Shown: piece by piece, positions 4 to 58,163 of the stretch | How the letters are laid out: every line of letters begins with the position of its first letter | Position numbering within the stretch: the stretch's first letter is position 1 | Assembly (NCBI GenBank): GCA_016788585.1 | Contig: JAEURP010000007.1 | Location: 1-64,000, forward strand | Direction of reading: 5' to 3' | Origin: Chthonomonas sp. | Lineage (GTDB): Bacteria; Armatimonadota; Fimbriimonadia; Fimbriimonadales; Fimbriimonadaceae | Length of the DNA stretch: 64,000 nt | Notes under the pieces: generated by a model | Database searches by the model: none | The model's input: the letters and a program-made list of their open reading frames with translations, nothing else | Told to the model about the DNA's origin: nothing | Position numbers and translations under genes: made by a program

Positions 4-137
4 GGTCTTTGGTCTATGGTCTATGGTCTATGGTCTATGGTCTATGGTCTATGGTCTATGGTCTATGGTCTATGGTCTATGGTCTATGGTCTATGGTCTA
101 TGGTCTATGGTCTATGGTCTATGGTCTATGGTCTATT
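4..137. repeat. Heptanucleotide tandem repeat (GGTCTAT)x18 plus one degenerate unit; the array begins exactly at the stop codon of the adjacent minus-strand gene and may continue beyond the window edge
   Basis: Direct reading: perfect 7-nt units from 11 to 136; ORF-track entry 9..536 (MVYGLWS repeated) is just its translation. Confidence 0.95.
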
Positions 138-3239: not shown

Positions 3240-3246
3240 CGCCGGT

Positions 3247-4599: not shown

Positions 4600-4689
4600 T
4601 TCCTTATGACAATCTTAGCTGATTGCCAGAGCTAGATACGGGGGAGACCTGGTTTGGTTGCGATGGTCCTAACAAGAGCTCTCGCAAAA

Positions 4690-5316
4690 TTAGGTCTCGC
4701 GGATGACGACGCAAGTTCCTTTTGCTTCGTTGATCTGGGCGACAACGACCTGCTCGCCCTTTCGTACGGTAACGCCGCGCTCGAGTTCAAGCGGATCCAA
4801 AGTGGCGAGCAACTGCTTGATTTCGCCATCTACATTCACGCGGATCAAGCCTCGACCGCTCTCATCAAAGTTCGAGATTGCTTCCGCTGGTTGAGCCAAT
4901 TGTCCTTGGAGACCTTCGCTGGGTTTGCTGGCAAAGCTCAACACGAGCCTCATGATGGGGCGAATGAGGAGAAAAGTGAATAAGATTCCGCCGAAGAAGG
5001 CGGCGGTCCAAATGAGTGGGCCAGTAAGCCGATCTTTGAGGAAGATACCGGTTGCGCCCATGGCAAGAGCCATGGAGAAGAGATTTACCGGAGAGAAGAG
5101 AAGGGGCAGCCCGTGAAGGATCGAATCTCCAAAACCGTGGCCATCGGTGTGTCCATGACCATGATGTCCGTCTGCGATGTGACCGCCGTGGTCGGAAGCA
5201 TGGCCATGCCCGTCTCCGTGGGCGTGGCCGCCGTCACCGTGACCATGCATGAGGCCGAGCCCCATCATGGCGATGAATCCGACTAAGCCGACCAGAAACA
5301 GAATTTCGAAGACCAC
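4690..5316 (-). CDS. NfeD-like membrane protein with C-terminal OB/beta-barrel domain; carries a 40-aa His/Gly/Asp-rich insert
   Basis: N-terminal TM helices; C-terminal GRGLIRVNVDGEIKQL...GEQVVVAQINEAKGTCVVI resembles NfeD C-domain; directly upstream of flotillin (classic NfeD-SPFH pairing); GTG start. Confidence 0.6.
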   Translation of the reverse strand: MVFEILFLVGLVGFIAMMGLGLMHGHGDGGHAHGDGHGHASDHGGHIADGHHGHGHTDGHGFGDSILHGLPLLFSPVNLFSMALAMGATGIFLKDRLTGPLIWTAAFFGGILFTFLLIRPIMRLVLSFASKPSEGLQGQLAQPAEAISNFDESGRGLIRVNVDGEIKQLLATLDPLELERGVTVRKGEQVVVAQINEAKGTCVVIRET

Positions 5317-5327
5317 GCTTCGCTATT

Positions 5328-5942
5328 CTAACTCGCAGCGTCGGCAAAAATCAGGCGAACGCACGACGCAAGCCTTCCATCGAGGGTGTCCGGCAGGACC
5401 TCAAGGGCAAAGGCCATTCGCGTTGGCTCGGTTGCAGACTCCAGTCGAACGACGTCACCGGCGGAAAGGTCGGCAGCGGTAAGGACCTTGGCTCCGCCAG
5501 CGCTTTGATCCAGTAGCAGGGAAGGAACGCCGTTCAAGGTGATCTTCTCTTCGCTCTTTATCCTTCCTTGGTCTCGCCGATTGTGGGCGACGGGCTGCTT
5601 GACACGCTTTAGCGTGAGAACGCGGGTCTTCGAATCTCGGTCGACAACCTGTGTGCGGAAGGTGAACGCCTCTCCAAAGCCTGGGGCTTCGACATAGACC
5701 TGGTCCCCGGTTCTTAGCGCCACGTAAGCGCCCTGAGCCATGGGGGCCTCAATTTGATAGCCGCGACTTGTTTCCCCGATGAATCGGGCCCGGAGAACAC
5801 CCCGTTCTGTTCGAAGCCGCCAAAAGGTCTTGGGCTGAAAGATGGGTTCTGGCCTACGTCGTCTCGCGATCAGAGTCGCAATGACGACGGCGACGGCCCA
5901 AAGGCCGAAAAACCAAAGACTAAGTTGTAGTTCGCTAACCAT
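5328..5942 (-). CDS. Membrane-anchored PilZ-domain protein (putative c-di-GMP receptor)
   Basis: N-terminal TM helix; C-terminal RRDQGR (RRxxxR) followed 22 aa later by DQSAGG (DxSxGG), the canonical PilZ c-di-GMP binding motifs. Confidence 0.55.
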   Translation of the reverse strand: MVSELQLSLWFFGLWAVAVVIATLIARRRRPEPIFQPKTFWRLRTERGVLRARFIGETSRGYQIEAPMAQGAYVALRTGDQVYVEAPGFGEAFTFRTQVVDRDSKTRVLTLKRVKQPVAHNRRDQGRIKSEEKITLNGVPSLLLDQSAGGAKVLTAADLSAGDVVRLESATEPTRMAFALEVLPDTLDGRLASCVRLIFADAAS

Positions 5943-7417: not shown

Positions 7418-8665
7418 TTAGCCTAATGACTTCAGGGCCTGTTGGCAAGCCTGGAGAGCGCTTCTGAGTGTTGGGCTGTCAGGACTTGCCTGGACTTGCG
7501 CTGTGAAGTATCGGACAGCGTTTTCGTAAGCACGCTTCGCGTCGGCCCTGCGGCCCAGTCGCTGATAGCATTGCCCAAGCCGCTGGTTGGTGCTTGCCGG
7601 TTCGGCACCCGCCGCCAAGGCGTCTTCATAGGCCTTTGCTGCCTTGGCGTAGTCACCGGAATTGAAAAACTGTCGAGCTCGGATTGTATGGTCGCGCCAT
7701 GTGGGACCCGAATCGCCAATGACCTCGCTACCGCCCACCTGCGTGGTGTTGCCCGGCGTGGGGCGAATATCCACAGTGCCGGGGTTCGATTGGGTCGTCG
7801 GCTGGGGATCACTTTGCGTTGGAGTCGGATCCGGATCCTGTTGAGAATTTGTTGAGTTGCTGTTCGATCCCGAAGGATTTTGATTCACCGGCGTGAGGTT
7901 CATCGGCGGGCGGAGCGGTCCGATTCCACCCTCGACCTCATCGGTTCGTCCGTTAGAGGACGGGTTTGGCAGTTGGTTGTTACTACCTGGGCGGTTTGTT
8001 GACGCAGTAGTATTCGGTCCGGTCGTTGGTTGCTGTGCGGCGGCTTGCTGGCGCAGTCTCTCGTATTCCTCGCGACTCACTTCCTTCGCTTGGGGCAATG
8101 GATCACTGGGCTTTTGCTGGCCCGAAGTTGTCCCCGGCGTATTGACCACATTGTTGACGATGGGCTCCTTGACGGTTGCGGCTTGAGCCCGATTGATCAT
8201 GAGGGCAGAAGTTATGCCGATACATGCGACCAGTGCGGTCGCTGCCACTGCGGCACCAAGGGCGGCTCGCTTGTTCGGGGTGACCGGGGTTGGCGCCTCG
8301 CTTAGCATTCGGCGTACATGCTCGACCTTGATTCGATCAAGCGGAGAATTGGGACTAAGTTCCGCAACTCGCTCGTAGCATGCCAAGGCATCGGCCAGCT
8401 TTCCTTGGCGCTCCAATGCGTCCCCCTTTAGGGAGAGCGCTTGCACGTGGCTTGGGTCGGCCTCTAGAGCTTCACAGGCGACCAGAAAGGCTTCATCCGA
8501 TCGTCCATCGCCCAGCAGTCTCAATCCGTTCTCGACCAATTCATTGTTGGCCTCTCTCGCATCAGCTAGGGCCTCTTCGGGCAGGGCATGCCCACAGGAC
8601 CGGCAAAATTGACTGTCCAGCGTATTGGGCTTTTCACACTCGGAACACGTTACCAATAGCATCAC
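7418..8665 (-). CDS. Zinc-ribbon / TPR / single-TM protein with Pro-Thr-Gln-rich extracytoplasmic low-complexity region (anti-sigma-like architecture)
   Basis: N-terminal CSECEKP...CRSCGH zinc ribbon, TPR repeats, TM helix AALGAAVAATALVACIGITSALMI, then PT/Q-rich segment and C-terminal TPRs. Confidence 0.55.
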   Translation of the reverse strand: MMLLVTCSECEKPNTLDSQFCRSCGHALPEEALADAREANNELVENGLRLLGDGRSDEAFLVACEALEADPSHVQALSLKGDALERQGKLADALACYERVAELSPNSPLDRIKVEHVRRMLSEAPTPVTPNKRAALGAAVAATALVACIGITSALMINRAQAATVKEPIVNNVVNTPGTTSGQQKPSDPLPQAKEVSREEYERLRQQAAAQQPTTGPNTTASTNRPGSNNQLPNPSSNGRTDEVEGGIGPLRPPMNLTPVNQNPSGSNSNSTNSQQDPDPTPTQSDPQPTTQSNPGTVDIRPTPGNTTQVGGSEVIGDSGPTWRDHTIRARQFFNSGDYAKAAKAYEDALAAGAEPASTNQRLGQCYQRLGRRADAKRAYENAVRYFTAQVQASPDSPTLRSALQACQQALKSLG

Positions 8666-19882: not shown

Positions 19883-20863
19883 CCGGCTCGGGGACACGGT
19901 CTGCAGAGTCTGGCAGCTTTCGATTGCGGCTCTGGCAATAGCGACGGCCCGCAGGCCATCCAGTGCCGTCACCGGAGCTTCGCGCGCACCCGTGCAAGTC
20001 TCGACAAACGCTCGTCCTTGGTTGTAATAGGGGTCGTCCACTGGCAGCATCGGTGACTCCAATTGTGTGTTCTCTTCCGTATGTCTTCGTACGGTCGGCG
20101 TCTTGCGAGAGTCGAATTCGATCATGCCCTTGTCGCCGCAGACTTCGATCGTCGTCCTGAATCCACTGGGGTCGAGCCACGTCGCCTCGACGTGAGCAAT
20201 CGCGCCCGATTCAAACTCTAAGGTCGTTAACGCATAGTCGCCCGGCTTGCCTTCGAGCGCTCCCGGGTTGGTCAGGCGAACCGATCGTGACGTGACGAAT
20301 CGCACCTCACCCAATGTCCAGCGCAACCAATCGAAATCATGCACTGCCAGGTCGAGCAGTACGCCGCCAGAGCGAGATGCATCTTGAAACCACCCAGCGC
20401 TACCCACTGGAGCCTTACCACCGCGGCGCGTGCGCGCGGTAACCGGGTTGCCAACCGCTCCTCCAGCAACCAACTCGTGGGCCTTCTTGAAGTCGGGGAA
20501 GTACCGAACAACTTGCGCGGGCATCAGAACCACACCTGCCTTCTCGGCTGCCTCCAGCATTTCGGCGCACTGGGCCACGTTCAGCGCCATCGGCTTCTCG
20601 CACAGCACGTGCCGGCCTGCCGCAATTGCCTTTAGGGTAACGGAATGGTGCGCATCCGTCGGTAAGCAAACATCCACGGCGTCTGCCCAGTTCAAGAGTT
20701 CGTCATAGGAAGTCGCAGGAGATAGGCCATGCGTCGAAGCAAAAGCCTCGGCGCGAGCGGGATCAAGTTCAAAGAACTTGAGTTCGACGTCGGGCATGTT
20801 CTTCCAATGCCGGGTGTGCACATTGCCCATCCCGCCCGCGCCGACAACCCCGATCCGTAACAT
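19877..20863 (-). CDS. Gfo/Idh/MocA family NAD(P)-dependent oxidoreductase
   Basis: N-terminal [13 protein letters not shown] Rossmann motif and family-typical length/organisation. Confidence 0.8.
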   Translation of the reverse strand: MLRIGVVGAGGMGNVHTRHWKNMPDVELKFFELDPARAEAFASTHGLSPATSYDELLNWADAVDVCLPTDAHHSVTLKAIAAGRHVLCEKPMALNVAQCAEMLEAAEKAGVVLMPAQVVRYFPDFKKAHELVAGGAVGNPVTARTRRGGKAPVGSAGWFQDASRSGGVLLDLAVHDFDWLRWTLGEVRFVTSRSVRLTNPGALEGKPGDYALTTLEFESGAIAHVEATWLDPSGFRTTIEVCGDKGMIEFDSRKTPTVRRHTEENTQLESPMLPVDDPYYNQGRAFVETCTGAREAPVTALDGLRAVAIARAAIESCQTLQTVSPSRS

Positions 20864-22209
20864 CAGTCCGAAAGTGTACTAGGTTGCTCAGTCTGCCGCG
20901 CTGCTACCAATCCCATGGCTAAACCCGCGATCGCGGCGACGGCTGAAGCGATCAATATTCCGAGTTTGGCGGGCCCAAGCAATGTCCCGTCCTTAAAGGC
21001 AAGCATCGCGATGAACATGGACATCGTAAACCCAATTCCCGCGAGCAATCCAGCCGAACAAAGCCAAAGCCATGAGACGCCAGCGGGAAGCCGGCTCAAG
21101 CCGAGTTTCACCGTCAGCAAACTGGCGCCAATGATTCCGACGGGCTTTCCCGCGACCAATGCAAGCGCAATCCCAAACATGACCGATTGGCTCTCTGCAC
21201 CTGCCCCGTTCGTATTGATCACCACACCGGCATTGGCGAGGGCGAACAGCGGCATGATGACGTAGGCCATCCAAGGGTGAATCGCCATCTGCGCTCTAAC
21301 CACCGGCGGCAGGAGCTCGCGTTGAGCCACTCGCAACTGCTTCAAGCGCGAGGCCATGCGGCTCTCATCGTCGGTGTGGTCCGAGTCGAAGAGTCGCTTA
21401 GTGGCGCGAACGACGATATCCATTGGATTCTCGCGCAGTTGCATCGATCGCACGGGGGTGATCAGGCCGAGCGTAACGCCTGCTAACGTAGGATGGACAC
21501 CTGCCCAATACAAGCCAGACCATGTGACCAAGCCCGGAATCACATAAGCCAACGCTGCCCCTGTCCCGATGCGCTGCAATCCAAGAACCAACAAAATTCC
21601 GAGTCCTGCCACCAAGAACCCGATGGCATTCAGACCCGACGAGTAGAAGAGCGCGATCACCAGCACGGCGATGATGTCGTCGATGATCGCGAGCGCGAGC
21701 AAAAAGACCCGCGCATTCGATGGGACTCGCTTACCCAAAAGAGCTAGAATCCCAACCGCAAAGGCGATATCCGTCGCCGTTGGAATCGCCCAGCCCGCCC
21801 GCTTGGCAGGATCAGCATTCATGGCAACGTAAATCAAGGCCGGAACAGCAACGCCACCCACCGCTGCCGCAAGAGGCAAGATGGCTTGCTTGGCGTCGCT
21901 CAACGCCCCTTCATGGATTTCGCGCCGAATCTCCATGCCGACGACTAGGAAGAAGATGGTCATCAACCCATCGTTGATCCAGAAGTGAAGGGACCGGTTG
22001 AACTCAAATGTCCCGACCTGAATGCCAATCGGCATATGCCAAAAGTCGTGATACGAGCCAGACCAAGGGGAGTTGGCCCAAAACAAAGCCGCGATTGCCG
22101 CGACCAGAAGGACCACGCCGCTAGCCGCCTCCACATGCAGGAAGCGCTCTAAGGTTCCAAAGGCGCGCTCGGCAAGGCGTTGGGCTCGGGGCAGATTCGT
22201 CTCGGGCAT
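20863..22209 (-). CDS. nhaA: Na+/H+ antiporter NhaA
   Basis: 448 aa polytopic membrane protein with NhaA-typical ALAIIDDI...conserved Asp pair and 12-TM layout. Confidence 0.85.
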
Positions 22210-22305
22210 AGGATTCCTCGCGCGGCGGCCCGACCAACGCTATCCTGCCCGCCAAGGGCGGACACCCAAACTCTAACTTACCTCTTTTTTGGTCAGCTCC
22301 AATGG

Positions 22306-28928: not shown

Positions 28929-30044
28929 TTACTCGTCTACGGCACCGAAATTGGCAATCACCAGATCAATGTCCGCCGCGTCCACTTCGCCACTGAGGTC
29001 GAGATCGGCGAATTCGTTGCCTACGCCAGGAAAGACCTGCCCAAACGAGGCGATGACTTCATCGATGTCGGCGGCATCCACTTCTCCTGAACCGTCGACA
29101 TCGCCATTGGTTAGCGCGACAGTTCCAATATCAATCGACTCTGGCATCACACTAGGCGGCACCGGTACCTGCACCAAGATAGTCTTGTGCAGGAAGGGCT
29201 GCCCGCCAATTCGGATAGAAATAGGGTTTGTAGTACCCGTTGGCAATACGGCTGGAACGGTAAGCCAAAACGCATCTGTCGCCGCCAAGTTGCTCATGCT
29301 AATCGCTTCCGAGGCGAACGTGACGCTTCCCGAAATCGCCGTGACTTGGATGGTACGCCCATGGGCCATGGGCGTGATCACATCGTTCAGCGTGATACGG
29401 CCATGAAAGTCCTGCCCAGGGATACCCAACGACAGAGCGAGATTCCCGTATTCGTAGGCTCCGGGGGGATTGTTGCTGTAGATGAGATCTGAGGCTGCGC
29501 TACTGCGAAAGACGTTCGCATCCGAGGTGCCGCGAGCAACCGTGCCCGGCATGATCCCCATCTCATTGAGCTGGGATACCGTTGCCATGCCATTTCCGTT
29601 GGAATCATTGTCGAGGGCAATGCCAACATAGAACTTCGAGGCAGGTACAGACAAGTCCCCACCGGCCGTGCTGAAGATGGCGTTTTCTGTCGAGTAACCG
29701 GCCATCCGAATAGCATCCCCGGTGAAGGCGGTGGTTCCCAGGTAGGTGCCCAGGGTAGAGCCTGGCCCGTTGGCCTCCCAGAACCGAATCCTCGGGCGAA
29801 AGCTCACATCGGCAAGATTGTAATTGTAAAACGTGGAGGCGATTGCTGTGACTTCGCGACCTGCATAAAGGCTCATCGCCGTAACATCGTCGGCGAGCGT
29901 TTTGGTGATTGGAGTGGTCCCGGATTGGGCAAACGAGGGGTACAAGCAGTCGTCGGCCATGGGCTCAGACTGATAGACCCAATAGGGAGACTGGGCCAGC
30001 CCAATCGCTGGCAACACACACAAGCTCAGTAGAAGCAGTCGCAT
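28929..30044 (-). CDS. Secreted protein with C-terminal dockerin-type repeat (paralogue B)
   Basis: Signal peptide MRLLLLSLCVLPAIGLAQ (ATG 30044; alternative TTG 30086); C-terminal TNGDVDGSGEVDAADIDEVIASFG...DLDLSGEVDAADIDLVIANFGAVDE. Confidence 0.65.
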   Translation of the reverse strand: MRLLLLSLCVLPAIGLAQSPYWVYQSEPMADDCLYPSFAQSGTTPITKTLADDVTAMSLYAGREVTAIASTFYNYNLADVSFRPRIRFWEANGPGSTLGTYLGTTAFTGDAIRMAGYSTENAIFSTAGGDLSVPASKFYVGIALDNDSNGNGMATVSQLNEMGIMPGTVARGTSDANVFRSSAASDLIYSNNPPGAYEYGNLALSLGIPGQDFHGRITLNDVITPMAHGRTIQVTAISGSVTFASEAISMSNLAATDAFWLTVPAVLPTGTTNPISIRIGGQPFLHKTILVQVPVPPSVMPESIDIGTVALTNGDVDGSGEVDAADIDEVIASFGQVFPGVGNEFADLDLSGEVDAADIDLVIANFGAVDE

Positions 30045-30091
30045 CTGAAAAAGGTTCAACGAAATCCTTTGCACCGATCGTGCCAAAGATT

Positions 30092-30174: not shown

Positions 30175-31344
30175 TCAAACGTCGTCGACAGCGCCGAAGT
30201 TGGCAATAACGATGTCGATATCTGCAGCATCCACTTCACCATTGATGTCGCAGTCGGAATTAGCAGCTGCATCGGTTTCCGCAGAGATCACGGCACCGAA
30301 GTCAGCGATCACCTGATCGATGTCAGCCGCGTCGACTTCACCCGAGCCATCGCAGTCGCCATTTGTCAACGCAACATCGGGAACCACGATTGCAACGGGA
30401 GCATCGTTCGGAGCTGCTGGAATCGTCACGTCGAACTTTCGCTTCAAGAACTGACCGCCGTCCATGGTGATGGTGACGGGGTTTGAGGCGCCAATAGGGA
30501 GGCGAGCTGGGCATCGTATGGCCAATGCACCTACGTTTGGACCTGCAGCAGCATAGGTGAAGATGTAGTAACCGGCAAGAATAACATTGCCGGCAGCAAC
30601 CGTAATGTTAATGGTCTTGGCATAGGCGGGCGAAACTACGTCGTTCATCGTCATGTTGAAGTTGTAGTTTTGCGACATCAGACCAAAGTCCATATCCAAC
30701 GTGTCGCCAGCTGGAAGGAGGCTCTGTACGCCATTTCCTGCTACGATCGCTTGGAACCAGCTACCTGGGGTGTTGGTGGTGTAGATCGCATCGGTGCTCG
30801 GCGCGAAGAACCCCGAGTTAGCAACCGCCTTTCCTAATGCCATTAGGTTGAGGTCTGCATCAGTGGCACCGGTCGTGTTGGCATTGTTGTCATACACCCA
30901 ACCCGCCCAGAACTTTCCGCTCGCTGGAACCAACACGTTGTTGGCGACCGTTGGAGCAAATGCATAGTAGTTGTTGCCGGGAACAAAGGAAATCGCCGCA
31001 AACGAGAAGCCGGGGCCTAAGGTTGCAGGATCGTTAATGCCAGTTGGTCCAACAGTTGTTCCGTCAGCTTGGTGCATGCGGTATCGAGGGCGGCAGCTAA
31101 TCGCCGCGCCACCAGTGTTTACCGTGTTCCAAGCGATATAGCGAATTGGCTGACCTGCCCACATAGGATCGATATTGATGTCGTCGGTGACGTACTTCGT
31201 GATCGGGCCCGCACCAGCAACGGCGCCGCCATTAATGACCGATCCGTTGGTCGCCCCTACAGCGGAAACGTAAAAGACGCCCTGAGCGTGCGCAAGGCTC
31301 CCAATAAGGAGTGCGCCCAAAGCGGTTAGAGTGAGTTTGTTCAT
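30175..31344 (-). CDS. Secreted protein with C-terminal dockerin-type repeat (paralogue C)
   Basis: Signal peptide MNKLTLTALGALLIGSLAHAQ with GAGGA RBS; C-terminal TNGDCDGSGEVDAADIDQVIADFG...DCDINGEVDAADIDIVIANFGAVDDV. Confidence 0.65.
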   Translation of the reverse strand: MNKLTLTALGALLIGSLAHAQGVFYVSAVGATNGSVINGGAVAGAGPITKYVTDDINIDPMWAGQPIRYIAWNTVNTGGAAISCRPRYRMHQADGTTVGPTGINDPATLGPGFSFAAISFVPGNNYYAFAPTVANNVLVPASGKFWAGWVYDNNANTTGATDADLNLMALGKAVANSGFFAPSTDAIYTTNTPGSWFQAIVAGNGVQSLLPAGDTLDMDFGLMSQNYNFNMTMNDVVSPAYAKTINITVAAGNVILAGYYIFTYAAAGPNVGALAIRCPARLPIGASNPVTITMDGGQFLKRKFDVTIPAAPNDAPVAIVVPDVALTNGDCDGSGEVDAADIDQVIADFGAVISAETDAAANSDCDINGEVDAADIDIVIANFGAVDDV

Positions 31345-31483
31345 GGATATCCTCAATTTCTGACAGACTTCGGCGCGCCAGATAGGCCACCGATAGTGAC
31401 CTCTACTATAACTCAAGTTCATCCTAAGTGTATGACAATTCTATGAGGAATTGAGAAGTCCCGGCCAAATACCAGCGAAAACC

Positions 31484-35284: not shown

Positions 35285-35362
35285 CAGTATATCATGGTTT
35301 TTGGTTTTGGGGTTCAGGTCGTTAAACGCCAAATACTCAACCCAGAAACCAAAAGCAGACGC

Positions 35363-36139: not shown

Positions 36140-36329
36140 GGTGATTCAAAGTGAAAGCCACCCACGCTTTACAGCGGAGGTGGCTTGAGATTCTCACCAC
36201 TTCCACAGTGCCTACGCCGGTATGAGCCGGATCAGGTCCTAGGGTCCGCAGATTTCTCTCTGCATCTCAGCCGCCTTCGCGACACCCCTTGCGGATTGCT
36301 TTCAACACTAAGAGTACCTTGCAGAAAGG

Positions 36330-40431: not shown

Positions 40432-40508
40432 GGCGAGGTAGCTCAGGTGGTTAGAGCAACGGACTCATAACCCGTAGGTCGCGGGTTCGACTCCCGCCCT
40501 CGCTACCA
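40432..40508 (+). tRNA. tRNA-Met (anticodon CAT); could alternatively be tRNA-Ile2 (lysidine) or initiator
   Basis: Cloverleaf readable by eye: acceptor GGCGAGG/CCTCGCT, D-arm GCTC-AGGTGGTTA-GAGC, anticodon loop CTCATAA, T-arm GCGGG-TTCGACT-CCCGC, 3' ACCA. Confidence 0.8.
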
Positions 40509-40531: not shown

Positions 40532-41269
40532 TCAGCCCGTAACTCCGCCAAACTTCCTCAGCCGCGATTGATACTCAATCACACCCGCGAAGAGGTCTTC
40601 TTGCTTAAACTCCGGCCAGGTGGTATCGGTCACAACGAGTTCCGCATAGGCCGCCTGGTAGATCAAAAAATTGCTCCAGCGCATTTCGCCCGCTGTCCGC
40701 AAAATCATGTCGGGGTCGGGAACTTCTGGCAAGTACATCTTCCGTGACAAACAAGCCTCATCAACCTCATCCGCGGGTACGCCCGACTTAATCAGGTCCC
40801 GAACCGCGTCCACGATCTCGGCTCGGCCGCCGTAGTTCACCGCGAGCGTGAACGTGATTCCCGTATTCGCCGCCGTCGTCTCAACCGCGAACTGAAACGC
40901 CTCTTGGAGCGAAGCAGGGAGTTCCTTCAGTCGCCCCGCGACCTTCAGCCGCACATTGTTGCGCATCATGGTCGGCACCTCGTCGCGCGTGGACTTCTCA
41001 ATCAGCTGCATCAGCCCCGCCACTTCATCGTCGCTTCGTCGCCAGTTTTCTGAGGAGAAGGCATAAACCGTCAGGTAGCGAATGCCTAAGTCGCTGCAAT
41101 CGAGCAATGCCGTGCGAAGGGTCTTGTAGCCTTTGTGATGCCCCCAAAGCCGCGCAAACCCTTGCGCCTTGGCGAAACGCCCATTACCATCCATGATCAT
41201 GCCGATATGAACCGGCAAGCGGTCGAGATTAACACCTGCAGCTTTGGCTTTGGTTTGGATGGGATTCAA
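40532..41269 (-). CDS. uppS: Undecaprenyl-diphosphate synthase (isoprenyl transferase)
   Basis: IMDGNGRFAK...YLTVYAFSSENWRR motifs; TTG start at 41269. Confidence 0.88.
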   Translation of the reverse strand: MNPIQTKAKAAGVNLDRLPVHIGMIMDGNGRFAKAQGFARLWGHHKGYKTLRTALLDCSDLGIRYLTVYAFSSENWRRSDDEVAGLMQLIEKSTRDEVPTMMRNNVRLKVAGRLKELPASLQEAFQFAVETTAANTGITFTLAVNYGGRAEIVDAVRDLIKSGVPADEVDEACLSRKMYLPEVPDPDMILRTAGEMRWSNFLIYQAAYAELVVTDTTWPEFKQEDLFAGVIEYQSRLRKFGGVTG

Positions 41270-41274
41270 GATTC

Positions 41275-41385
41275 TGTTAGGATTTGTTAGGGTTTGTTTG
41301 GGTCGTTAGGTTTGTTCGGGTCACTTTGCAAAAGGAGTAGCTTCCAGTCCTAACCACCCGAACTAATCCGAACCAACCCTAACGG
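41275..41385. repeat. GT-rich repeat element (GTTAGG[G/A]TTTG-type units) with partial inverted copy (CCTAAC...CCCTAAC) in the frr-uppS intergenic region
   Basis: Direct reading: ctgttaggatttgttagggtttgtttgggtcgttaggtttgttcggg ... gtcctaaccacccgaactaatccgaaccaaccctaacgg. Confidence 0.6.
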
Positions 41386-41388
41386 AGA

Positions 41389-41943
41389 TCAGACTTCCAT
41401 CAACTCAGCTTCTTTCTTCTTCTGGTGAGCGTGAGCTTCTTCGACATACTTGTCGGTCGACTTCTGAATCTTGCTCTCGAAGCCCTTCAGTTCGTCCTCG
41501 TTGATTTCCTTTGCCTTAAGCTTCGCCTGCACGTGATGAATGGCGTCACGGCGCACGTTTCGAATCGCGATAATCGCTTCCTCAGTCCGTCCGCTCACCT
41601 GTTTCGCCATTTCCTTGCGGCGGTCTTCGGTCATCTGCGGCAGGATGAGGCGGATCGCGGTGCCGTCATTGGTTGGGTTGATACCCAAATCGCTCTTCAA
41701 AATCGCCTTCTCGATCGCGCCAAACATGCTTTTGTCCCAAGGGGTAATCGCAATCATGCGCGGCTCGGGGACGCTGATATTAGCGACCTGGCTAATCGGC
41801 GATTCAGCGCCGTAATAGTCAACCGTAATGCGCTCCAGCATCGCCGGGTTCGCCCGCCCCGTGCGATAAGTCGCAAAGTCGTGCAACATCGCATCAATCG
41901 CGGCCTTCATTCGCCGCTCAGCATCTTGAATCAATTCGTCCAT
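41389..41943 (-). CDS. frr: Ribosome recycling factor
   Basis: RRF-typical sequence throughout; ATG at 41943 preferred (longer track ORF merely translates the GT-rich repeat as NPNKPNKK). Confidence 0.88.
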   Translation of the reverse strand: MDELIQDAERRMKAAIDAMLHDFATYRTGRANPAMLERITVDYYGAESPISQVANISVPEPRMIAITPWDKSMFGAIEKAILKSDLGINPTNDGTAIRLILPQMTEDRRKEMAKQVSGRTEEAIIAIRNVRRDAIHHVQAKLKAKEINEDELKGFESKIQKSTDKYVEEAHAHQKKKEAELMEV

Positions 41944-41946
41944 GGT

Positions 41947-42031
41947 TTTTTTGTTTGGTTTGTTAGGATTTGCCAGGGTTCGTTCGGTTTGTCCGTTATT
42001 CCCCAATTCCTAATTCTAAACTCCTAATTCC
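41947..42031. repeat. Second copy of the GT-rich element (tttgttaggatttgccagggttcgttcggtttg) followed by CT-rich cctaattc repeats, in the pyrH-frr intergenic region
   Basis: Shares tgttaggatttg core with 41275-41385. Confidence 0.55.
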
Positions 42032-42757
42032 TCATTCTCCAGCAACTACCGTCCCAACTGGTTCGCCAAGAACAGCCTGCAGCATTGCGTCCTTCTGATT
42101 CAAGTCTAACACGACCAGTGGAAGCTCATGTTCCCGGCACATCGTAAAGGCGGTCATGTCCATCACCGCGAGTTGCTTGCTCATCACTTCGCCATAGCCG
42201 ACCTTCTCGTAACGCTTGGCATCGGCGTGCTTGCGAGGGTCTTTGTCATAGACGCCATCCACCTTGGTCGCTTTAATTAAGGCATCAGCGTGAATCTCTA
42301 GTGCGCGCAAAACGCCCGCTGTGTCGGTCGTAAAGTAGGGATTGCCGGTGCCGCTCGCGAATACAACGATGCGCCCCTTTTCGAGGTGGCGAATGGCGCG
42401 CCTCACGATGAACGGCTCGGCGACCTGGCTCACGGTTATCGCGCTTTGCACCCGCGCCGCAACGCCATATTTCTCAATGGCGTTTTGCAGGGCGAGGCCA
42501 TTGATGACCGTACCCATCATGCCCATCTGATCAGCCACGCTGCGGTCGAATCCGCCCTGCTGGCTAAAGGCATCGCCTCGAATAAAGTTGCCGCCACCGA
42601 CTACCACCGCGACCTGAACGCCCGCATTCGCAACCGCAACAATCTCACCGGCAATTCGGTTCAAGGTCGTGGCATCAAGCCCAAATCCGGCGTCTCCGGC
42701 GAGCATTTCGCCACTAATCTTCAGGAGTACGCGCTTGAATTTGGGGGTGCCGGACAT
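42032..42757 (-). CDS. pyrH: UMP kinase
   Basis: KRVLLKISGE...GGG..FRG and overall PyrH sequence; ATG at 42757 preferred. Confidence 0.9.
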   Translation of the reverse strand: MSGTPKFKRVLLKISGEMLAGDAGFGLDATTLNRIAGEIVAVANAGVQVAVVVGGGNFIRGDAFSQQGGFDRSVADQMGMMGTVINGLALQNAIEKYGVAARVQSAITVSQVAEPFIVRRAIRHLEKGRIVVFASGTGNPYFTTDTAGVLRALEIHADALIKATKVDGVYDKDPRKHADAKRYEKVGYGEVMSKQLAVMDMTAFTMCREHELPLVVLDLNQKDAMLQAVLGEPVGTVVAGE

Positions 42758-42806: not shown

Positions 42807-44039
42807 ATGTCTAAGTTTTGGGTTTCGTGCCTCTGTGTTTGTGCCACGCTCTCGGCCAGCGCGATCGGGCCGCGCGTTGCCATCGTTGCCGCTGCCACCA
42901 ACACGGCTAACGAACAAACGAACACTCGCTTCACCGATCCACGCGATATGCTCGTAAATGACGGTCGTTTCAGTAGCGTGACGATTATCAGCACCACACA
43001 GTACGGTGGTGGCTTTACGCCGACCCTTATCGACCTCCTTCAATATGACGCGATCCTCCACTGGACCAATGACTCGAACGAAGACAGCGTCGGCCTGGGC
43101 AATAGCTTTGCTGACTATGTGGACGCAGGAGGCGGCGTAGTCGTGTCGGTTTTTGCTAACACTTCGACCAATGTCATGCGTTACCTGCGCGGTCGATGGC
43201 AGACCGGAAATTACGAGATCATTCCCGCCGCAGGCACCCATACGGAAGGTCCGGTCGCCGGTACCCCGGGCACTGAGGGGTACATCCATATGGCAACGCC
43301 AATTGTTCCGGCTCACCCCATTTTCCAAGGAGTTGGCGACGTGCGGCTGTGGTGGAAGACGACGACTCAGGGTCTCCGCTGGGGCGCCCATCGACCCACA
43401 AATACCAACGTCCACCTTTGGGGGCAGAAAATCGCGCTGTGGGACGACGGTAAGACCGCGGTTGCCCTGCACAACGACCACCCCAACCGCGTGGATTTGG
43501 GCATTCACCCGGTGTCCGACGCCGTTGCATTAGCCTACTATGATCGCACAAGCGACGCTGGAAAGCTGATCGCGAACTCGCTTCTGTATTCGGCAGGAAT
43601 CGCGATTGCCGTTGATTTGAGCCTCGGCGATACGGTGAGCCCGATGGCGGCATCCCGCAGCATTGACTACACAGTAAAGCAAGGAGATATTGTTCGGAAG
43701 ATTGGGACGGTGCAATTACCTACGGTGCCAGAGGCTCCCGCAAGGATCTACCTGCTGCGATCACTGACCGGCCCAATCACGATCGAGTTCGATGGCGCCT
43801 CCTATCTTCGGAAGAAAGTGCACGCAGTTCATGCGGGCAGTGACCTGAATCTCGGACCCGTTGTATTGACGAACGGTGACCCTGACAATAGCGGTGAAGT
43901 CGATGCCGCTGATATTGACGCTGTCATTGCCAACTTCGGATCAACGAATGACGGTAGCACCGACGTGGACGCGTCTGGGGAAGTTGATGCCGCCGATATC
44001 GATATCGTGATTTCCAACTTTGGCAGCGTCAACGAATAA
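42807..44039 (+). CDS. Secreted ThuA/class-I-glutamine-amidotransferase-like protein with C-terminal dockerin-type repeat (paralogue D)
   Basis: N-terminal signal peptide; DAILHWTND...GGGVVVSVF ThuA-like; C-terminal TNGDPDNSGEVDAADIDAVIANFG...DVDASGEVDAADIDIVISNFGSVNE. Confidence 0.6.
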   Translation: MSKFWVSCLCVCATLSASAIGPRVAIVAAATNTANEQTNTRFTDPRDMLVNDGRFSSVTIISTTQYGGGFTPTLIDLLQYDAILHWTNDSNEDSVGLGNSFADYVDAGGGVVVSVFANTSTNVMRYLRGRWQTGNYEIIPAAGTHTEGPVAGTPGTEGYIHMATPIVPAHPIFQGVGDVRLWWKTTTQGLRWGAHRPTNTNVHLWGQKIALWDDGKTAVALHNDHPNRVDLGIHPVSDAVALAYYDRTSDAGKLIANSLLYSAGIAIAVDLSLGDTVSPMAASRSIDYTVKQGDIVRKIGTVQLPTVPEAPARIYLLRSLTGPITIEFDGASYLRKKVHAVHAGSDLNLGPVVLTNGDPDNSGEVDAADIDAVIANFGSTNDGSTDVDASGEVDAADIDIVISNFGSVNE

Positions 44040-44126: not shown

Positions 44127-45992
44127 ATGAAGAAAATCGCTAGCCTATGCCTTCTGCTAGGCTTAATGAACATAGTCCAGGCGCAGCTCACCGTTCCCAA
44201 AGGTGCGACAGTGAATGGTCATGGACAGACCCTTTTGGACACAAGCGCCGCTAAGGCCAAGTGTGTCGCCGACTCCAGTGTAACCGGTGGATATCGAATG
44301 AGCCTCCGCTGGCTGGAATGGGCAATTTATACAGTACCGAATGGCAAGACCAGCATCGGCGCTGTTCAAGTCTGCCACTGGAAATGCAAGGGTGGCAAGC
44401 ACACGCACGCTGCCGAGTGCATCGAAGGTGGATGCTATACAAAGTGCACCGATAAGCATTTGGTAACGCTTGATTCTTCCAGAAGCACTGAGGACACTGT
44501 TTCGACAGCAGTGGCGAGCGAATCAGCGATCGAGCACTGCATCGAGGTCAGCGCCGAAGCTGGAATTGAGATTGGTCCGGTCAGCCTTGGCGGTAGTGTA
44601 ACGGGAAGCAAAACTACCTCACAGACTAAGTCGATCGAGAACAGCATTTCTGCGGCCATCGGGGCCTCGCAAACCGGTACCGTCAATATTGATGTCGAGC
44701 ACTTCAACACCGTGTGCTGCACCAAGACAACGCGAGTCTATGGCTTCTACCAATATGAAGTTCATGTCGTAGCTTTGGTGAAGGAGCATGATTACTACGC
44801 AGATAGCTGGATCATCGGTCTTGGCAAGGCGGGCGTACTGCCGAGCGGCGGTTTGAAACTCATTGGAGATAGCCGCGTGGTCGCTGGTCCAAGCGACACG
44901 ATCGTCGCCACTTACCAGATTCCAAGCAATGAGCCACTCAGTGAAAAGCCTGAGACGATTTGCAAATGCGTACCCGCGCCAGTCACGACACCAAATGGCA
45001 GTGGAAGTAGCGGTGGAAGCAAAGACCCATTGGATGATCAAGGTAGCTTGCCGCGCGGAACCTCTCGATTCAAAGTGACTCCAAAAGACGATGAAGAGTA
45101 CGTCGTCCGTAACCCCTACAATGGCCCCCTATTGGTGGATTACGGCCCATTCAAGACGGTTCTTGAGCCAAAGGGCGAAGTCACTATTCCGAAGGGCAAG
45201 GACACTTCCGTCGTCGTAAAGAACTCAAAGGGCGAGCCCTTGCTCGGCATCCTCATCGACTACGGCTACAACTTCTTGACGCGAAATGGGAATCCGCCCA
45301 TGAGATCTCCTGGTCCAACCGATTCGACGCCGCCCATGATCATGCCAATCGAAGGTGGCGCGGTCAATTTCGGTGGACTCACTCCCGTAAATCTAACCGG
45401 CCCCAACCTTGGGTTGCCCAAGTTCAACGGCCAGTTCGAAGGCATCAAGTTCTCGGGACTCACTTCGGGATGCTTACCGGTCATGGGATCGAGTACGCCA
45501 ATTCTGGAGTTCGTCGGCCACTGGCCCAAGGGTTCCCAATTACAGATCACGGAAGGCACGAAAGCAAGCGGTGCTCAGTGCATGTTTGAAGTGCGAAAGG
45601 GCAACGAAGTTGTTCGTTCATTTGGGCGGTTCACTGGTGTTCAAGGCATGAGCAACCCGACGATCAATGTCGTTAATCCGAGCGGCCAAGTCATTGGAAG
45701 CACAAAGATGAGTACTGATCCGGTCGGATTCGAGACGAAAATTTCGCCTGAGTCTGGCAAGGTGGGAACCGAAGCCACGATGACTGTGAACTGTCAGCCG
45801 GTTCAAGCGGTGCTTAGTTTGGATGGAACGGAAGCTCAAAACTCCCTTCGGCTGGTCTTCGACTACTCGAACAGCGGCGGCGCCACCGGCCCCAAGACGG
45901 CCAATGTTCCGGCCAACGGAATCGTCACGGTCAAAATCAAACGAGGCGAGGTTGGTGAATACGCCGTTGGAGTCGGGATGGAGATCCGATAG
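44127..45992 (+). CDS. Secreted Cys-rich beta-type protein, possible aerolysin/ETX-like insertion segment (speculative)
   Basis: Signal peptide MKKIASLCLLLGLMNIVQAQ; Cys-rich N-domain; Ser/Thr-rich alternating stretch IEIGPVSLGGSVTGSKTTSQTKSIENSISAAIGASQTGTVNIDV. Confidence 0.45.
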   Translation: MKKIASLCLLLGLMNIVQAQLTVPKGATVNGHGQTLLDTSAAKAKCVADSSVTGGYRMSLRWLEWAIYTVPNGKTSIGAVQVCHWKCKGGKHTHAAECIEGGCYTKCTDKHLVTLDSSRSTEDTVSTAVASESAIEHCIEVSAEAGIEIGPVSLGGSVTGSKTTSQTKSIENSISAAIGASQTGTVNIDVEHFNTVCCTKTTRVYGFYQYEVHVVALVKEHDYYADSWIIGLGKAGVLPSGGLKLIGDSRVVAGPSDTIVATYQIPSNEPLSEKPETICKCVPAPVTTPNGSGSSGGSKDPLDDQGSLPRGTSRFKVTPKDDEEYVVRNPYNGPLLVDYGPFKTVLEPKGEVTIPKGKDTSVVVKNSKGEPLLGILIDYGYNFLTRNGNPPMRSPGPTDSTPPMIMPIEGGAVNFGGLTPVNLTGPNLGLPKFNGQFEGIKFSGLTSGCLPVMGSSTPILEFVGHWPKGSQLQITEGTKASGAQCMFEVRKGNEVVRSFGRFTGVQGMSNPTINVVNPSGQVIGSTKMSTDPVGFETKISPESGKVGTEATMTVNCQPVQAVLSLDGTEAQNSLRLVFDYSNSGGATGPKTANVPANGIVTVKIKRGEVGEYAVGVGMEIR

Positions 45993-47648
45993 CTACCGGA
46001 TATTGAAGTACTTTGCCGCCGGATGGTGAATGACGATCGCGCTGGTGCTCTGCTCGGGCACCAGCATAAACTCCTCGCTTAGCTCGATTCCGATTCGGCC
46101 GGGATCGAGCAACTCGAACAGCTTTGCTTGATCCTCTAGGTTAGGGCAAGCGGGATAGCCGAACGAGTATCGCGCGCCTTGATACTTAACCCCAAAGAGC
46201 CCCTTAATATCGGCTGGGTCGTTGTGGCCTATTCCCATCTCAGCGCGCATCAGTTTGTGCCAGTACTCGGCAAGGGCCTCGGCCGTCTCAACACCCATGC
46301 CGTGTACGAAAAGATAATCCTGAAACTCGCCCCTTGCGAACAGCGCGCGCTCGGCATCACTTACCGCCGATCCAACCGTCACAATACTGAACCCGGCGAC
46401 ATCCATCTCGGAATCACCGACCGGGCGGAAGAAATCGGCGAGGCACTGCCGGCGACCATCGCGTTGGCGAGGAAAGTTGAATCGAAGCCGCTCAGTTTTC
46501 TTGTCGTCCTCGAAAATGACGAGGTCGTTTCCTTCGCTTTGCGCCCAAAAGTATCCCCAAGCTACCTTTGGCGTCAAGACGGTAGCCAGCTCTCTTTGTA
46601 GCCGATTGAAGGTGGGTCGTGCCTCTTGCTCCAGATAGGCATTGAACCCAGGGTTGTCCATGCCATCCGGACGCTTAAATTGCCACTGCCCGCGCCAGAG
46701 CGCGGTCAAGTTGATGTACTTGTAAATCTCAAAGATGTCGAATTTGTCGCGAACCCGCGAGCCATAGAAGGGAAGGACCGGAATGCTCTCGGCGGCCTCG
46801 ATATCGCTCTTGACGCCCTGATATTCGTAGAGATCGGGATCGAGTTCATCTGTCCGGTGGCTGCGAGTCCGCTCGCCGCGATCGGCAATCTCCACGGACT
46901 CACCGCTGCCAATCTGCTCCATCAGCCGCAGACCCTCAAAAGCATCCTGTGCGTAGTGAACTTGGCCACGATAGATGTCGCGTAAGTCCTCTTCGACGTA
47001 GCCGCGGGTCAGGGCCGCGCCGCCAAGGATGACGGGAATTTCGGCTAGGCCCCGTTCGTTCATTTCGAGCAGGTTGTCCTTCATGATCACCGTGCTCTTC
47101 ACGAGCAGCCCGCTCATGCCAATGACCTGGCACTGGTTCGCCGCGCACTGGTCGAGAATGTTGTTGATCGGCTGCTTAATGCCAATATTCACCACCCGAT
47201 AACCATTGTTCGAAAGGATGATGTCGACGAGGTTTTTGCCAATGTCGTGAACATCGCCGGCGACGGTCGCCAATAGGATAGAGCCCTTTTCGGCTCCCTC
47301 AACTTTCTCCATCAATGGCTCAAGCTGAGCTACTGCGGCTTTCATCACCTCAGCGCTTTGGAGAACGAATGGCAATTGCATCTTGCCTGCGCCAAATAAC
47401 TCGCCAACAGTCTTCATACCGTCGAGAAGAATCTCGTTGATGATCGTCAGCGGTTCATACGTCTTGAGCGCATCCTGTATGTGCCGGTCAAGGTTCTTCT
47501 TGACGCCGTCGATGATGTGCTTTTTCAGCTTGTCTTCGACACTGAGGGCGGCAAACGCATCTTCGCTGTCATTCGTTGCGCGCACGCCCTCGAACCGCTT
47601 CATGAGTTCGATGAGCGGATCGTATGTCACGCGCTTCTCGTCTGCCAC
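45993..47648 (-). CDS. metH: Methionine synthase C-terminal half only (B12-binding cap + cobalamin-binding + AdoMet activation domains); start uncertain
   Basis: DVHDIGKN...GMSGLL (B12 DxHxxG...SxL...GG motifs) and C-terminal reactivation domain; no Hcy/pterin-binding domains; GTG at 47648 proposed, track ORF runs on through the G-rich repeat to 47858. Confidence 0.65.
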   Translation of the reverse strand: MADEKRVTYDPLIELMKRFEGVRATNDSEDAFAALSVEDKLKKHIIDGVKKNLDRHIQDALKTYEPLTIINEILLDGMKTVGELFGAGKMQLPFVLQSAEVMKAAVAQLEPLMEKVEGAEKGSILLATVAGDVHDIGKNLVDIILSNNGYRVVNIGIKQPINNILDQCAANQCQVIGMSGLLVKSTVIMKDNLLEMNERGLAEIPVILGGAALTRGYVEEDLRDIYRGQVHYAQDAFEGLRLMEQIGSGESVEIADRGERTRSHRTDELDPDLYEYQGVKSDIEAAESIPVLPFYGSRVRDKFDIFEIYKYINLTALWRGQWQFKRPDGMDNPGFNAYLEQEARPTFNRLQRELATVLTPKVAWGYFWAQSEGNDLVIFEDDKKTERLRFNFPRQRDGRRQCLADFFRPVGDSEMDVAGFSIVTVGSAVSDAERALFARGEFQDYLFVHGMGVETAEALAEYWHKLMRAEMGIGHNDPADIKGLFGVKYQGARYSFGYPACPNLEDQAKLFELLDPGRIGIELSEEFMLVPEQSTSAIVIHHPAAKYFNIR

Positions 47649-47670
47649 AGGTTCAATTGTACTTAGTTTC

Positions 47671-47747
47671 GGGTGTGGGGTCTGGGGTGTAGGGTTTGGG
47701 GTGTGGGGTGTGGGGTGTGGGGTGTGGGGTATGGGGTATGGGGTATG
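47671..47747. repeat. G-rich heptamer tandem repeat (GGGTGTG/GGGTATG-type x11) between folB and metH-like gene; G-quadruplex-capable on plus strand
   Basis: Direct reading of 11 consecutive 7-mers each starting GGG(G). Confidence 0.9.
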
Positions 47748-47773
47748 GCGAGCGCGACCCCCCAACCCCAAAC

Positions 47774-48142
47774 TTACCGATTCACGGTCACGCTCACACC
47801 CGCGTCCGCCGCAATGTACGAAATTGGGGGCTTTACCTTCGCCAGAGTCACGGTGCAAACTCGCACTCGCTCGTCACTCAGAAGTATGGCCTCAGCCACG
47901 CGCTGAGCGACAAACTCCATGAGGCGATGCTTGTCTTTGGTCGCGACGGACACGGTGAGCGCAGTTAACGTGCCGTAGTCAATCGTTGCGTCGAGCTCAT
48001 CGCGGTGGTTCCCATCCCCCGCCACTCGAAGATCAAGGTCTAGGGTGTAGCGATGCCCAATCTCCTGCTCCTCGGCAGAGCAACCGTGATACGCGTAGAA
48101 CTCAATCCCACGCACAAAAAGGCGATAAGAGTGGGCTTCCAT
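47774..48142 (-). CDS. folB: 7,8-Dihydroneopterin aldolase
   Basis: 122 aa; FV.GIEFYAYHG...E.E.GQ.Y..DL.L pattern of FolB. Confidence 0.8.
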   Translation of the reverse strand: MEAHSYRLFVRGIEFYAYHGCSAEEQEIGHRYTLDLDLRVAGDGNHRDELDATIDYGTLTALTVSVATKDKHRLMEFVAQRVAEAILLSDERVRVCTVTLAKVKPPISYIAADAGVSVTVNR

Positions 48143-56117: not shown

Positions 56118-58012
<1,895 letters not shown>

Positions 58013-58016
58013 TGCG

Positions 58017-58043
58017 TTGGCAGTATACCGCCGGGAGTGCTAA
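58017..58043. promoter_or_regulatory. Degenerate CIRCE (HrcA operator) TTGGCAGTA-N9-GAGTGCTAA immediately upstream of groES
   Basis: Right half 9/9, left half 6/9 to TTAGCACTC-N9-GAGTGCTAA; only 4 nt from groES ATG. Confidence 0.5.
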
Positions 58044-58052
58044 TAAGGCTAG

Positions 58053-58152
58053 TTTTCGGTGTTCAGTTTTCAGTGTTCGGTTTCACAGATTTCATGTTTG
58101 CGGCTCGCGTCTCCCCTCATCTCCAAACACCGAACACCGAACACCGAACACC
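58053..58152. repeat. Inverted heptamer repeats: (TTCGGTG-like)x3 ... ~40 nt ... (CACCGAA)x4, in groES upstream / GNAT upstream region
   Basis: Direct reading: ttttcggtgttcagttttcagtgttcggtttc ... aaacaccgaacaccgaacaccgaacacc. Confidence 0.85.
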
Positions 58153-58163
58153 ATAATAAACCT

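Follow-up and report, generated by a model that had tools for sequence, protein, structure and literature searches.

The DNA analyzed here, referred to as the window, is a stretch of 64,000 nt (positions 1 to 64,000 of contig JAEURP010000007.1) from an uncultured soil or freshwater bacterium of the Armatimonadota, family Fimbriimonadaceae. Our subject is an array of eleven G-rich heptanucleotide units in the 125-nt spacer between folB and a metH-like gene, two co-directional genes on the minus strand. The array belongs to an intergenic inverted repeat; heptamer-armed inverted repeats composed of different, non-G-rich units occupy the orthologous spacer in three related lineages, and the potential of the array to form a G-quadruplex (G4) is probably incidental. 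The locus comprises the following features, given in the direction of transcription.

47774..48142, minus strand: folB, encoding dihydroneopterin aldolase, 122 aa (Pfam), with the stop codon TAA at 47774..47776.
47758..47773, minus strand: inverted partner arm, GTTTGGGGTTGGGGGG, beginning at the first base after the folB stop and pairing with the first two to three array units in the RNA fold.
47749..47757, minus strand: 9-nt loop between the arms, TCGCGCTCG (sequence and RNA fold).
47729..47773, minus strand: predicted 45-nt stem-loop of about -23 kcal/mol, directly 3' of the folB stop in the folB-direction transcript.
47671..47748: heptanucleotide array of 11 units, G-rich (GGGTGTG type) on the plus strand and C/A-rich (CCCCACA type) on the minus strand (tandem-repeat search, unit list and G4Hunter).
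47656..47661, minus strand: -10-like hexamer TACAAT, 7 nt before the GTG, within the block AAGTACAATTGAAC[CT]TGTG.
45993..47648, minus strand: metH-like gene, 551 aa, with the B12-binding cap, B12-binding and reactivation domains of methionine synthase (Pfam).

Tandem Repeats Finder (TRF) delimits a period-7 array at 47671..47748 (78 nt; 11.1 copies, 90% matches, score 114). Listed unit by unit on the plus strand, it consists of GGGTGTG, GGGTCTG, GGGTGTA, GGGTTTG, four copies of GGGTGTG and three copies of GGGTATG, i.e., the inner array is a block of four identical units followed by a block of three, and the promoter-proximal units are degenerate. Of its 11 G-tracts, nine have four Gs and two have three, and the loops are 3–4 nt long. 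An earlier reading of the DNA from its sequence alone (the sequence-only reading) had described eleven consecutive G-rich 7-mers on the template strand of the folB-direction transcript, and both statements hold: the G-rich strand is the plus strand, and both flanking genes have the C/A-rich minus strand as their sense strand. The coordinates of that reading, 47649..47773, coincide exactly with the spacer from the folB stop to the metH-like start, while the array proper occupies only its inner 78 nt. The window contains nine period-7 TRF arrays with a score of at least 30, compared with a mean of 1.2 in 20 dinucleotide-preserving shuffles; the heptamer array is real and statistically exceptional. 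A telomere-like or contaminant origin (GGGGTGT resembles the telomere units of ciliates) was rejected in view of the syntenic housekeeping neighbours and of flanks conserved in relatives.

The canonical putative quadruplex sequence (PQS) pattern, G3+N1-7 x4, i.e., at least four G3+ tracts on one strand with loops of 1–7 nt, is matched at 47671-47694 and 47698-47722, and no other match exists on the two strands of the 64 kb. The array also gives the longest run above the G4Hunter threshold (25-nt windows scoring at least 1.5) and is the top region of the window by mean (1.88 over 91 nt). The minimum free energy (MFE) of the G-rich strand, computed with RNA parameters, is -75.3 kcal/mol when G4s are allowed and -37.9 kcal/mol when they are not. 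The array thus falls within the canonical definition of an intramolecular PQS, and the claim of the sequence-only reading that it is strongly G4-capable stands at the level of in silico prediction.

On the minus strand, the spacer consists of the folB stop TAA, the arm GTTTGGGGTTGGGGGG, the loop TCGCGCTCG, eleven C/A-rich units ((CCATACC..CCCCACA..)x11), GAAACTAAG, TACAAT, TGAACCT and the GTG start codon. The element fills the space between the folB stop and the -10-like box. Its partner arm corresponds to about two degenerate G-rich heptamers placed in the orientation opposite to the array, and beyond the stem-loop the remaining C-rich array is predicted to be unpaired.

Leaderless-type promoters, known from Actinobacteria and Deinococcus, carry a TANNNT -10 box a few nucleotides before the start codon. 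The metH-like gene shows this arrangement (TACAAT, 7 nt, GTG), and the block AAGTACAATTGAAC[CT]TGTG is conserved in four related lineages. A TANNNT hexamer 5–10 nt before the candidate start was found at 31 of 52 orthologous loci (null mean 5.8, null maximum 13 in 200 trials); at the loci lacking it, the upstream gene, as read from the upstream sequences, abuts the start. At two loci where the metH-like gene lies 49 and 115 nt from a divergent gene (L112 and L110, respectively), CCACAATTGA[AG]CCT still precedes the ATG. Among 57 putative genes of the window, 15 have TANNNT 5–9 nt before the candidate start (5.5 expected). Examples in the window are found at 19145 (TACAAT, 6 nt, GTG), 42807 (TAGAAT, 6 nt, ATG) and 15411 (TAAACT, 8 nt, ATG). 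These patterns suggest that the metH-like gene may have its own leaderless-type promoter with the -10 box right before the start codon, and that a sizeable fraction of genes in this Armatimonadota genome may be leaderless. If the metH-like gene does have its own -10 box before the GTG, the array spans roughly -23..-100; it would then precede the promoter core and form part of the folB 3' trailer, and the earlier placement of the array in the 5' region of the metH-like gene and transcript is at odds with this position. The C/A-rich units were also considered as -35-like hexamers phased to the -10 box and were rejected: the hand-counted spacings are 12 or 19 nt here and 15 nt at 58126, not 16–18 nt.

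The orthologous spacers of relatives were compared between two conserved flanks, ...GTGAATCGGTA[AG] and AAGTACAATTGAAC[CT]TGTG. Three related lineages have heptamer-armed inverted repeats of different, non-G-rich units between these same flanks. One of them, L078, encodes a metH-like protein from the same 90% cluster as that of the window; the proteins of L079-97 and L001 belong to a cluster about 87% identical to the window protein. The L078 spacer consists of the heptamers TTTTCAG, TGTTCGG, TGTTCGG and TTTTCAG, a 26-nt loop, and the heptamers CCGAAAA, CTGAACA, CTGAACA and CCGAACA, that is, a TGTTCGG/CCGAACA unit. In L079-L088, a GGAG-rich arm is followed by GAACTCC repeats, and in L089-L097 and L001 a GGAGTTC-type arm is followed by a 55-nt loop and the heptamers CGAACTC, AAAACTC and CGAACTC. 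BLAST alignment of the window with L078 shows genes that are 80–83% identical and breaks exactly at 47664 and 47771. The L078 spacer folds at -39.9 kcal/mol (z -3.5) and the L089 spacer at -45.2 kcal/mol (z -3.6). What is kept at the site, judging from these alignments and predicted folds, is a hairpin with heptamer-periodic arms, and what is not kept is G-rich sequence.

Such elements are a common type in this family. In 495 kb of Fimbriimonadaceae loci, 40 period-7 arrays were found. The units in the 64-kb window and about 430 kb of relatives are diverse and mostly not G-rich, including GGTCTAT x19, AACACCG, AATTCCT, TCGGTGT x10 and TTCGACT. About half of the arrays with at least three copies have an inverted partner within 200 nt by a strict criterion; the elements of relatives include (TCGGTGT)x10/(CCGAACA)x4, (GTCGAAA)n/(TTCGACT)x8 and (TGTCTTG)/(ACACAAG). 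The polarity of the arms is nearly uniform: in 15 of 16 elements a G/T-rich arm comes first (5') and a C/A-rich arm second (3'), so that the sense strand of every downstream gene is the C/A-rich one. G4 capability is limited to about 2 of some 22 non-redundant arrays sampled in the family, namely, the folB/metH array and (GGGGATC)x5 in L006. Further elements in the window are as follows.

4..136: (GGTCTAT)x19, 99% identical, the longest tandem array of the window, with no G-tract, followed by TG-ATAGAC, a short inverted copy.
35299..35354: inverted repeat TTTTGGTTTTGGGGTTCAG / CTCAACCCAGAAACCAAAA, 84% complementary, with an 18-nt loop, between two co-directional minus-strand genes.
41270..41392: element with a G/T arm and a C/A arm in the frr-uppS spacer, -50 kcal/mol, z -4.7 (z computed for 41265-41400).
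41953..42037: element with a G/T arm and a C/A arm in the pyrH-frr spacer, (AGGAATT)x4.7 and then a C/A-rich run up to the frr ATG.
58045..58155: heptamer-armed hairpin with a TGTTCGG/TTTTCAG-type arm, a 42-nt loop and AACACCG x4, -34 kcal/mol, z -5.0 (z computed for 58040-58165).

The array at 4..136 reaches the start of the window and may extend further. The element at 58045..58155 lies in the divergent spacer of groES (57704..58012, minus strand) and a GNAT acetyltransferase gene (ATG at 58164, plus strand). It is conserved in alignable form, with a degenerate arm, in L109 (GroEL 96% identical); more distant relatives have a different neighbour gene and no element upstream of groES, which gives a partial view of unit turnover. 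The groES and groEL genes overlap in the window (TAATG, 57704) and are split by a hairpin element of 116 nt in L109 (1385..1500) and of 113 nt in L112 (1388..1500; period about 10–11), each having one G-rich and one C/A-rich arm. Thus, elements are gained or lost quickly, even inside an operon.

Several observations accompany these elements. No Shine-Dalgarno sequence precedes the frr ATG in the pyrH-frr spacer, and L089 has GGAGGA at the corresponding place. A repeat similar to the controlling inverted repeat of chaperone expression (CIRCE), TTAGCACTC-N9-TACTGCCAA, is located at 58017..58043 on the minus strand and is separated by 4 nt from the groES ATG downstream of it; similar repeats (TTTGGCACTC-N9-TACTGC[CT]AA) precede groES in L110, L112 and L113. 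Outside the phylum, the locus L033 (6554..6688 and 7632..7751) from Tepidisphaerales (Planctomycetota) has an inverted heptamer pair, (GTGGGTT)x5 / (CACAACC)x11, and, at its end, a perfect (CGCGAAGG)x15 array, so that Armatimonadota is not alone in showing the phenomenon.

The array lies within a long open reading frame (ORF) of 621 aa that reads HTPHPTPHTPNPTPQTPHPK; it starts with TTG at 47858, inside folB, and the frame is open because the C/A-rich repeat has no stop codon in it. Translation of the repeat as an HP/TP-rich N-terminal extension of the metH-like protein has this open frame in its favour and several observations against it. The ORF would share 85 nt with the 3' end of folB. The 120 homologues listed are 540–813 aa long, mostly 550–600 aa, and cover only 86–92% of the 621-aa ORF. 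In the 14 homologues whose N-termini were read, these either follow M-x-[DE]-E-[KR]-x-[VC]-TYDPLIELM or are unrelated miscalled extensions, and none of the 14 contains an HP/PT repeat. Relatives have different, non-homologous sequence at the spacer site. P0001, the annotated product in the 'Chthonomonas sp.' metagenome-assembled genome, is 100% identical to the 551-aa protein and starts at GTG 47648. Translation of the repeat is ruled out by the lengths and N-termini of the homologues, with a residual probability that is practically negligible; by this comparison the array is untranslated, as the sequence-only reading had surmised.

That reading was also right in calling the downstream gene a C-terminal-only metH: Pfam shows only the B12 cap, B12-binding and activation domains, and the homocysteine and folate barrels are absent. 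A C-terminal-only MetH is the normal state in Fimbriimonadaceae, and the gene order NusA <-> folB -> metH-like is syntenic in relatives. No N-terminal half of MetH was found among the window ORFs scanned. A fused full-length MetH, with homocysteine and pterin barrels and the C-terminal half, is encoded in a deeper relative (L025, Fimbriimonadales STL-ARM1, 2170..5656), and in L019, L022, L023 and L035 a split C-terminal metH directly follows an apparent C-terminus of metF (methylenetetrahydrofolate reductase), called by eye from the upstream sequence.

Copy-number variation, named earlier as a point to check, was not seen. An exact-match look-up with FolB retrieved five contigs of the same population, 99.97–100% identical where compared. 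One of them spans the array and has the same 11 units, three end inside the perfect 4-unit block, and one ends before the array; the 4-unit block is the expected break point of a k=31 assembly graph. L098, a separate assembly that is 99.97% identical over 3.5 kb, has the same 11-unit array, and no variation was seen between the two short-read assemblies that span it (the window and L098). Nor does spacer length vary within two related species, represented by nine loci each. Six contigs of the same population have the heptamer hairpin upstream of groES in identical form. A metagenome scan for copy-number variants yielded nothing closer than 74% amino-acid identity. Within this short-read, population-limited sampling there is no sign of hypervariability, and no difference in copy number of the kind that defines phase-variable simple sequence repeats (SSRs).

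The rest of the window is an ordinary chromosome, encoding NusA, IF2, GroESL, frr, uppS, GcvT, RelA/SpoT, GatB, NhaA and flagellin. Its only Rfam matches, all at gathering score, lie outside the folB/metH spacer; Rfam 15 has no match at that score within 47649-47773. They are the following.

22221..22267, minus strand: nhaA-I RNA, directly upstream of the NhaA antiporter gene (20863..22209).
36191..36299, minus strand: thiamine pyrophosphate (TPP) riboswitch.
40432..40505, plus strand: tRNA.

The gene at 44127..45992 on the plus strand encodes a 621-aa protein that has no Pfam match and whose N-terminus resembles a signal peptide; the gene ends exactly where the convergent metH-like gene does (45992/45993), and in relatives it is syntenic as a gene for a 616-aa protein. 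Three proteins of roughly 400 aa (28929..30086, 30175..31422 and 42807..44039) have weak C-terminal dockerin matches.

Four known systems invite comparison. The repetitive extragenic palindromic (REP) sequences of E. coli and their bacterial interspersed mosaic elements (BIMEs) are intergenic palindromes of conserved sequence that depend on the REP-associated tyrosine transposase (RAYT) and have no tandem 7-nt periodicity. Like the element studied here, they form intergenic hairpins between co-directional genes and can act on mRNA 3' ends; sequence conservation, RAYT dependence and the absence of a 7-nt period set them apart. The short tandemly repeated repetitive (STRR) heptamers of cyanobacteria and the TAACTGA direct repeats of Beggiatoaceae, Cyanobacteria and Bacteroidetes (MacGregor 2015, PMC4679880) are likewise intergenic tandem heptamers near start codons of free-living bacteria with no established function. 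They differ in having one specific unit per family, TAACTGA usually in 2–6 copies, and a hairpin partner is not part of their description.

The closest parallel is provided by the G-rich heptameric intergenic SSRs of Xanthomonas (GGGAATC) and Nostoc (GGGGA[C/T]T), whose oligonucleotides form G4s in vitro; a regulatory role could not be identified for them (Rehm et al. 2015, PLoS One, PMC4692102). Common features are a 7-nt unit with a G3-4 tract in many tandem copies, an intergenic location between co-directional ORFs, no more than 50 bp ahead of an ORF whose non-coding strand carries the Gs, convergent inverted pairs that are frequent and could fold into stem-loops, sites that persist although the repeat differs in length and sequence from one related genome to another, housekeeping neighbours, and no identified function. 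The folB/metH array has the general definition of that class, a non-coding tandem repeat of a G3-4-containing 7-nt unit in at least two copies (TRF period 7, 11.1 copies), and also its placement: it ends 23 nt before the GTG, has template-strand Gs between co-directional ORFs, and is accompanied by the inverted partner at 47758-47773. The strand rule of Xanthomonas and Nostoc, by which the G-rich strand is non-coding upstream of ORFs (PMC4692102), is the same as that followed by 15 of 16 elements in our sample. On the other hand, the array comes from another phylum, its units (GGGGTGT, GGGGTAT, GGGGTCT) depart from the consensus GGGNATC or GGGGA(C/T)T, with only L006 in the sample having GGGGATC, and its 11 units contrast with a preference for four. 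Moreover, one unit dominates genome-wide in Xanthomonas and Nostoc, whereas no dominant G-rich unit was found in the 64 kb and about 430 kb of relatives: each Fimbriimonadaceae array has its own unit, most of these are not G-rich, and G4 capability is therefore not a property of the class.

In Haemophilus influenzae, the (ATCTTTC)n arrays of hmw1A and hmw2A pair with a G-rich arm into a hairpin that is cut by RNase III, and a G-to-A mutant that loses the predicted G4 but retains the hairpin behaves as the wild type; breaks of short-read assemblies within the array are also reported (Rapun-Araiz et al. 2025, NAR, PMC12721329). The folB/metH locus resembles hmw in that a heptamer array is predicted to pair with a G-rich partner into a hairpin ahead of a gene, the G-rich part has a predicted G4, and short-read assemblies break. 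The hmw arrays, however, are located in a mapped 5' untranslated region (5'UTR), are phase-variable and control an adhesin via RNase III, whereas the folB/metH array lies upstream of a putative -10 box of a housekeeping gene, shows no length variation, and has as its G-rich element the complementary strand of the array itself together with the 16-nt arm. The conserved -10-like box downstream of the array, if it is indeed a promoter element, speaks against a 5'UTR location of the hmw type.

The non-coding status, position and anatomy of the array, its membership in the class, the replacement of units in relatives and the polarity of the arms are established. The explanation that we favour, and consider probable, is that the array is a non-coding member of the heptamer hairpin class of this lineage and that its G4 potential is incidental. 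A non-coding heptanucleotide SSR would then be the long 3' arm of an intergenic inverted-repeat element of the type common in Fimbriimonadaceae. The array may have grown by slipped-strand replication, since blocks of four and three identical units adjoin older, degenerate ones. In the folB-direction transcript, a G-rich/C-rich stem-loop right after the folB stop would be followed by about 55 nt of unpaired C-rich, G-poor RNA, and the element could serve as a 3'-end or intercistronic structure that sets the expression of folB apart from the putative leaderless-type promoter of metH-like. The template-strand G4 potential would be a by-product of the particular unit sequence. A specific RNA-level role as such a 3'-end or insulating structure is a tentative proposal, which we regard as rather less than an even bet. 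Several points weigh against this picture. The hairpin of the folB/metH spacer in the window is short and asymmetric (a 16-nt arm against a 78-nt array), and the folding energy of the window spacer is no better than that of shuffles of the same G-block/C-block composition (z about 0), because the shuffled blocks pair too. After the stem there is no U-tract, only CCCCACA repeats with no T-run; an intrinsic (Rho-independent) terminator was rejected on this ground and by a terminator scan that was negative at the spacer, the presence of a stem notwithstanding. Similar elements are also found in divergent spacers, as between the GNAT gene and groES, and a terminator or intercistronic role cannot explain these. 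Finally, a purely neutral origin, e.g., by slippage together with quasipalindrome correction, would leave the same pattern.

The sequence-only reading saw in the array a G-quadruplex positioned to modulate transcription or translation. In such a switch, the template strand, once freed by opening of the duplex, would form one intramolecular G4 or two, and these would block or modulate RNA polymerase, either coming from folB or initiating at the metH-like promoter. The 11 G-tracts with their 3-nt loops, the G4Hunter score, the sole PQS in 64 kb, the gain in MFE on allowing G4s, and the in vitro behaviour of the Xanthomonas and Nostoc oligonucleotides (PMC4692102) are all consistent with this. 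It is nevertheless unlikely: the heptamers at the same site in three related lineages are not G-rich, only about 2 of some 22 sampled arrays of the family are G4-capable, the longest array of the window, (GGTCTAT)x19, has no G-tract, Rehm et al. identified no regulatory role (PMC4692102), and in hmw the hairpin mattered, not the G4 (PMC12721329). G4 formation as the purpose of the element thus found no support in the orthologous spacers. About equally doubtful is an expression rheostat or contingency locus, in which the heptamer copy number would tune metH-like expression from upstream of the promoter or within a folB-metH transcript. It would account for the hmw-like architecture of a heptamer SSR with a G-rich partner arm and for the identical-unit blocks, which indicate recent slippage; the three short-read contigs ending in the perfect 4-unit block could reflect length heterogeneity or a k-mer assembly break. 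Yet both array-spanning assemblies have 11 units, each of the two related species has one spacer length (9 and 9 loci from different samples), the hairpin upstream of groES is identical in six contigs, and the flanking genes serve housekeeping (folate, methionine) rather than surface or contingency functions.

We also find improbable, if anything more so, a small non-autonomous mobile element, i.e., a palindromic insertion resembling REP or a miniature inverted-repeat transposable element (MITE), that has landed repeatedly in the folB/metH spacer and at other intergenic sites. Non-alignable inserts between conserved flanks, the variable presence of elements (groES and groEL overlapping in the window and separated by the 116-nt hairpin in L109), and the TGTTCGG/CCGAACA unit family that the L078 insert shares with the window element at 58051-58152 and with L008 are what such insertions would leave. 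Against it, elements sharing arm units have unrelated loops; no obvious target-site duplications were noticed in the spacers read, and the Pfam scan of roughly 24 window ORFs revealed no transposase or RAYT gene, neither being the object of a systematic search. The arms at the folB/metH spacer are strongly asymmetric in length, and slippage explains the tandem periodicity better than transposition does.

Taken alone, the array adds one more G4-capable heptamer repeat to a phenomenon known in Xanthomonas and cyanobacteria. At one orthologous site in four related lineages, the heptamer-armed hairpin is kept and its sequence is not, with only one of the four being G-rich; this natural experiment speaks for persistence of the hairpin and the periodicity rather than of the G-quadruplex, in agreement with the result for Haemophilus hmw. 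In practical terms, ORF callers can read through such arrays and short-read assemblies break inside them. Armatimonadota is flagged as a phylum with abundant heptamer arrays and putative leaderless-type promoters; in the library searched, no relevant paper on either was found for this phylum. It is conceivable, though we would put it below even chances, that Fimbriimonadaceae, and perhaps some Planctomycetota (L033), have a selected class of intergenic hairpins with tandem-heptamer arms, in which architecture, site and polarity are conserved, with the G/T-rich arm 5' and the C/A-rich arm abutting the next start or -10 box, while the unit sequence turns over completely between genomes about 80% identical in nucleotides. 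If so, there would be a sequence-independent constraint on periodicity and pairing, possibly caused by a structure-specific RNA- or DNA-binding factor, an entry platform for RNase III or Rho, or an active mechanism homogenising the arms; in such a class the G-rich folB/metH array would stand at one extreme, as an expanded member.

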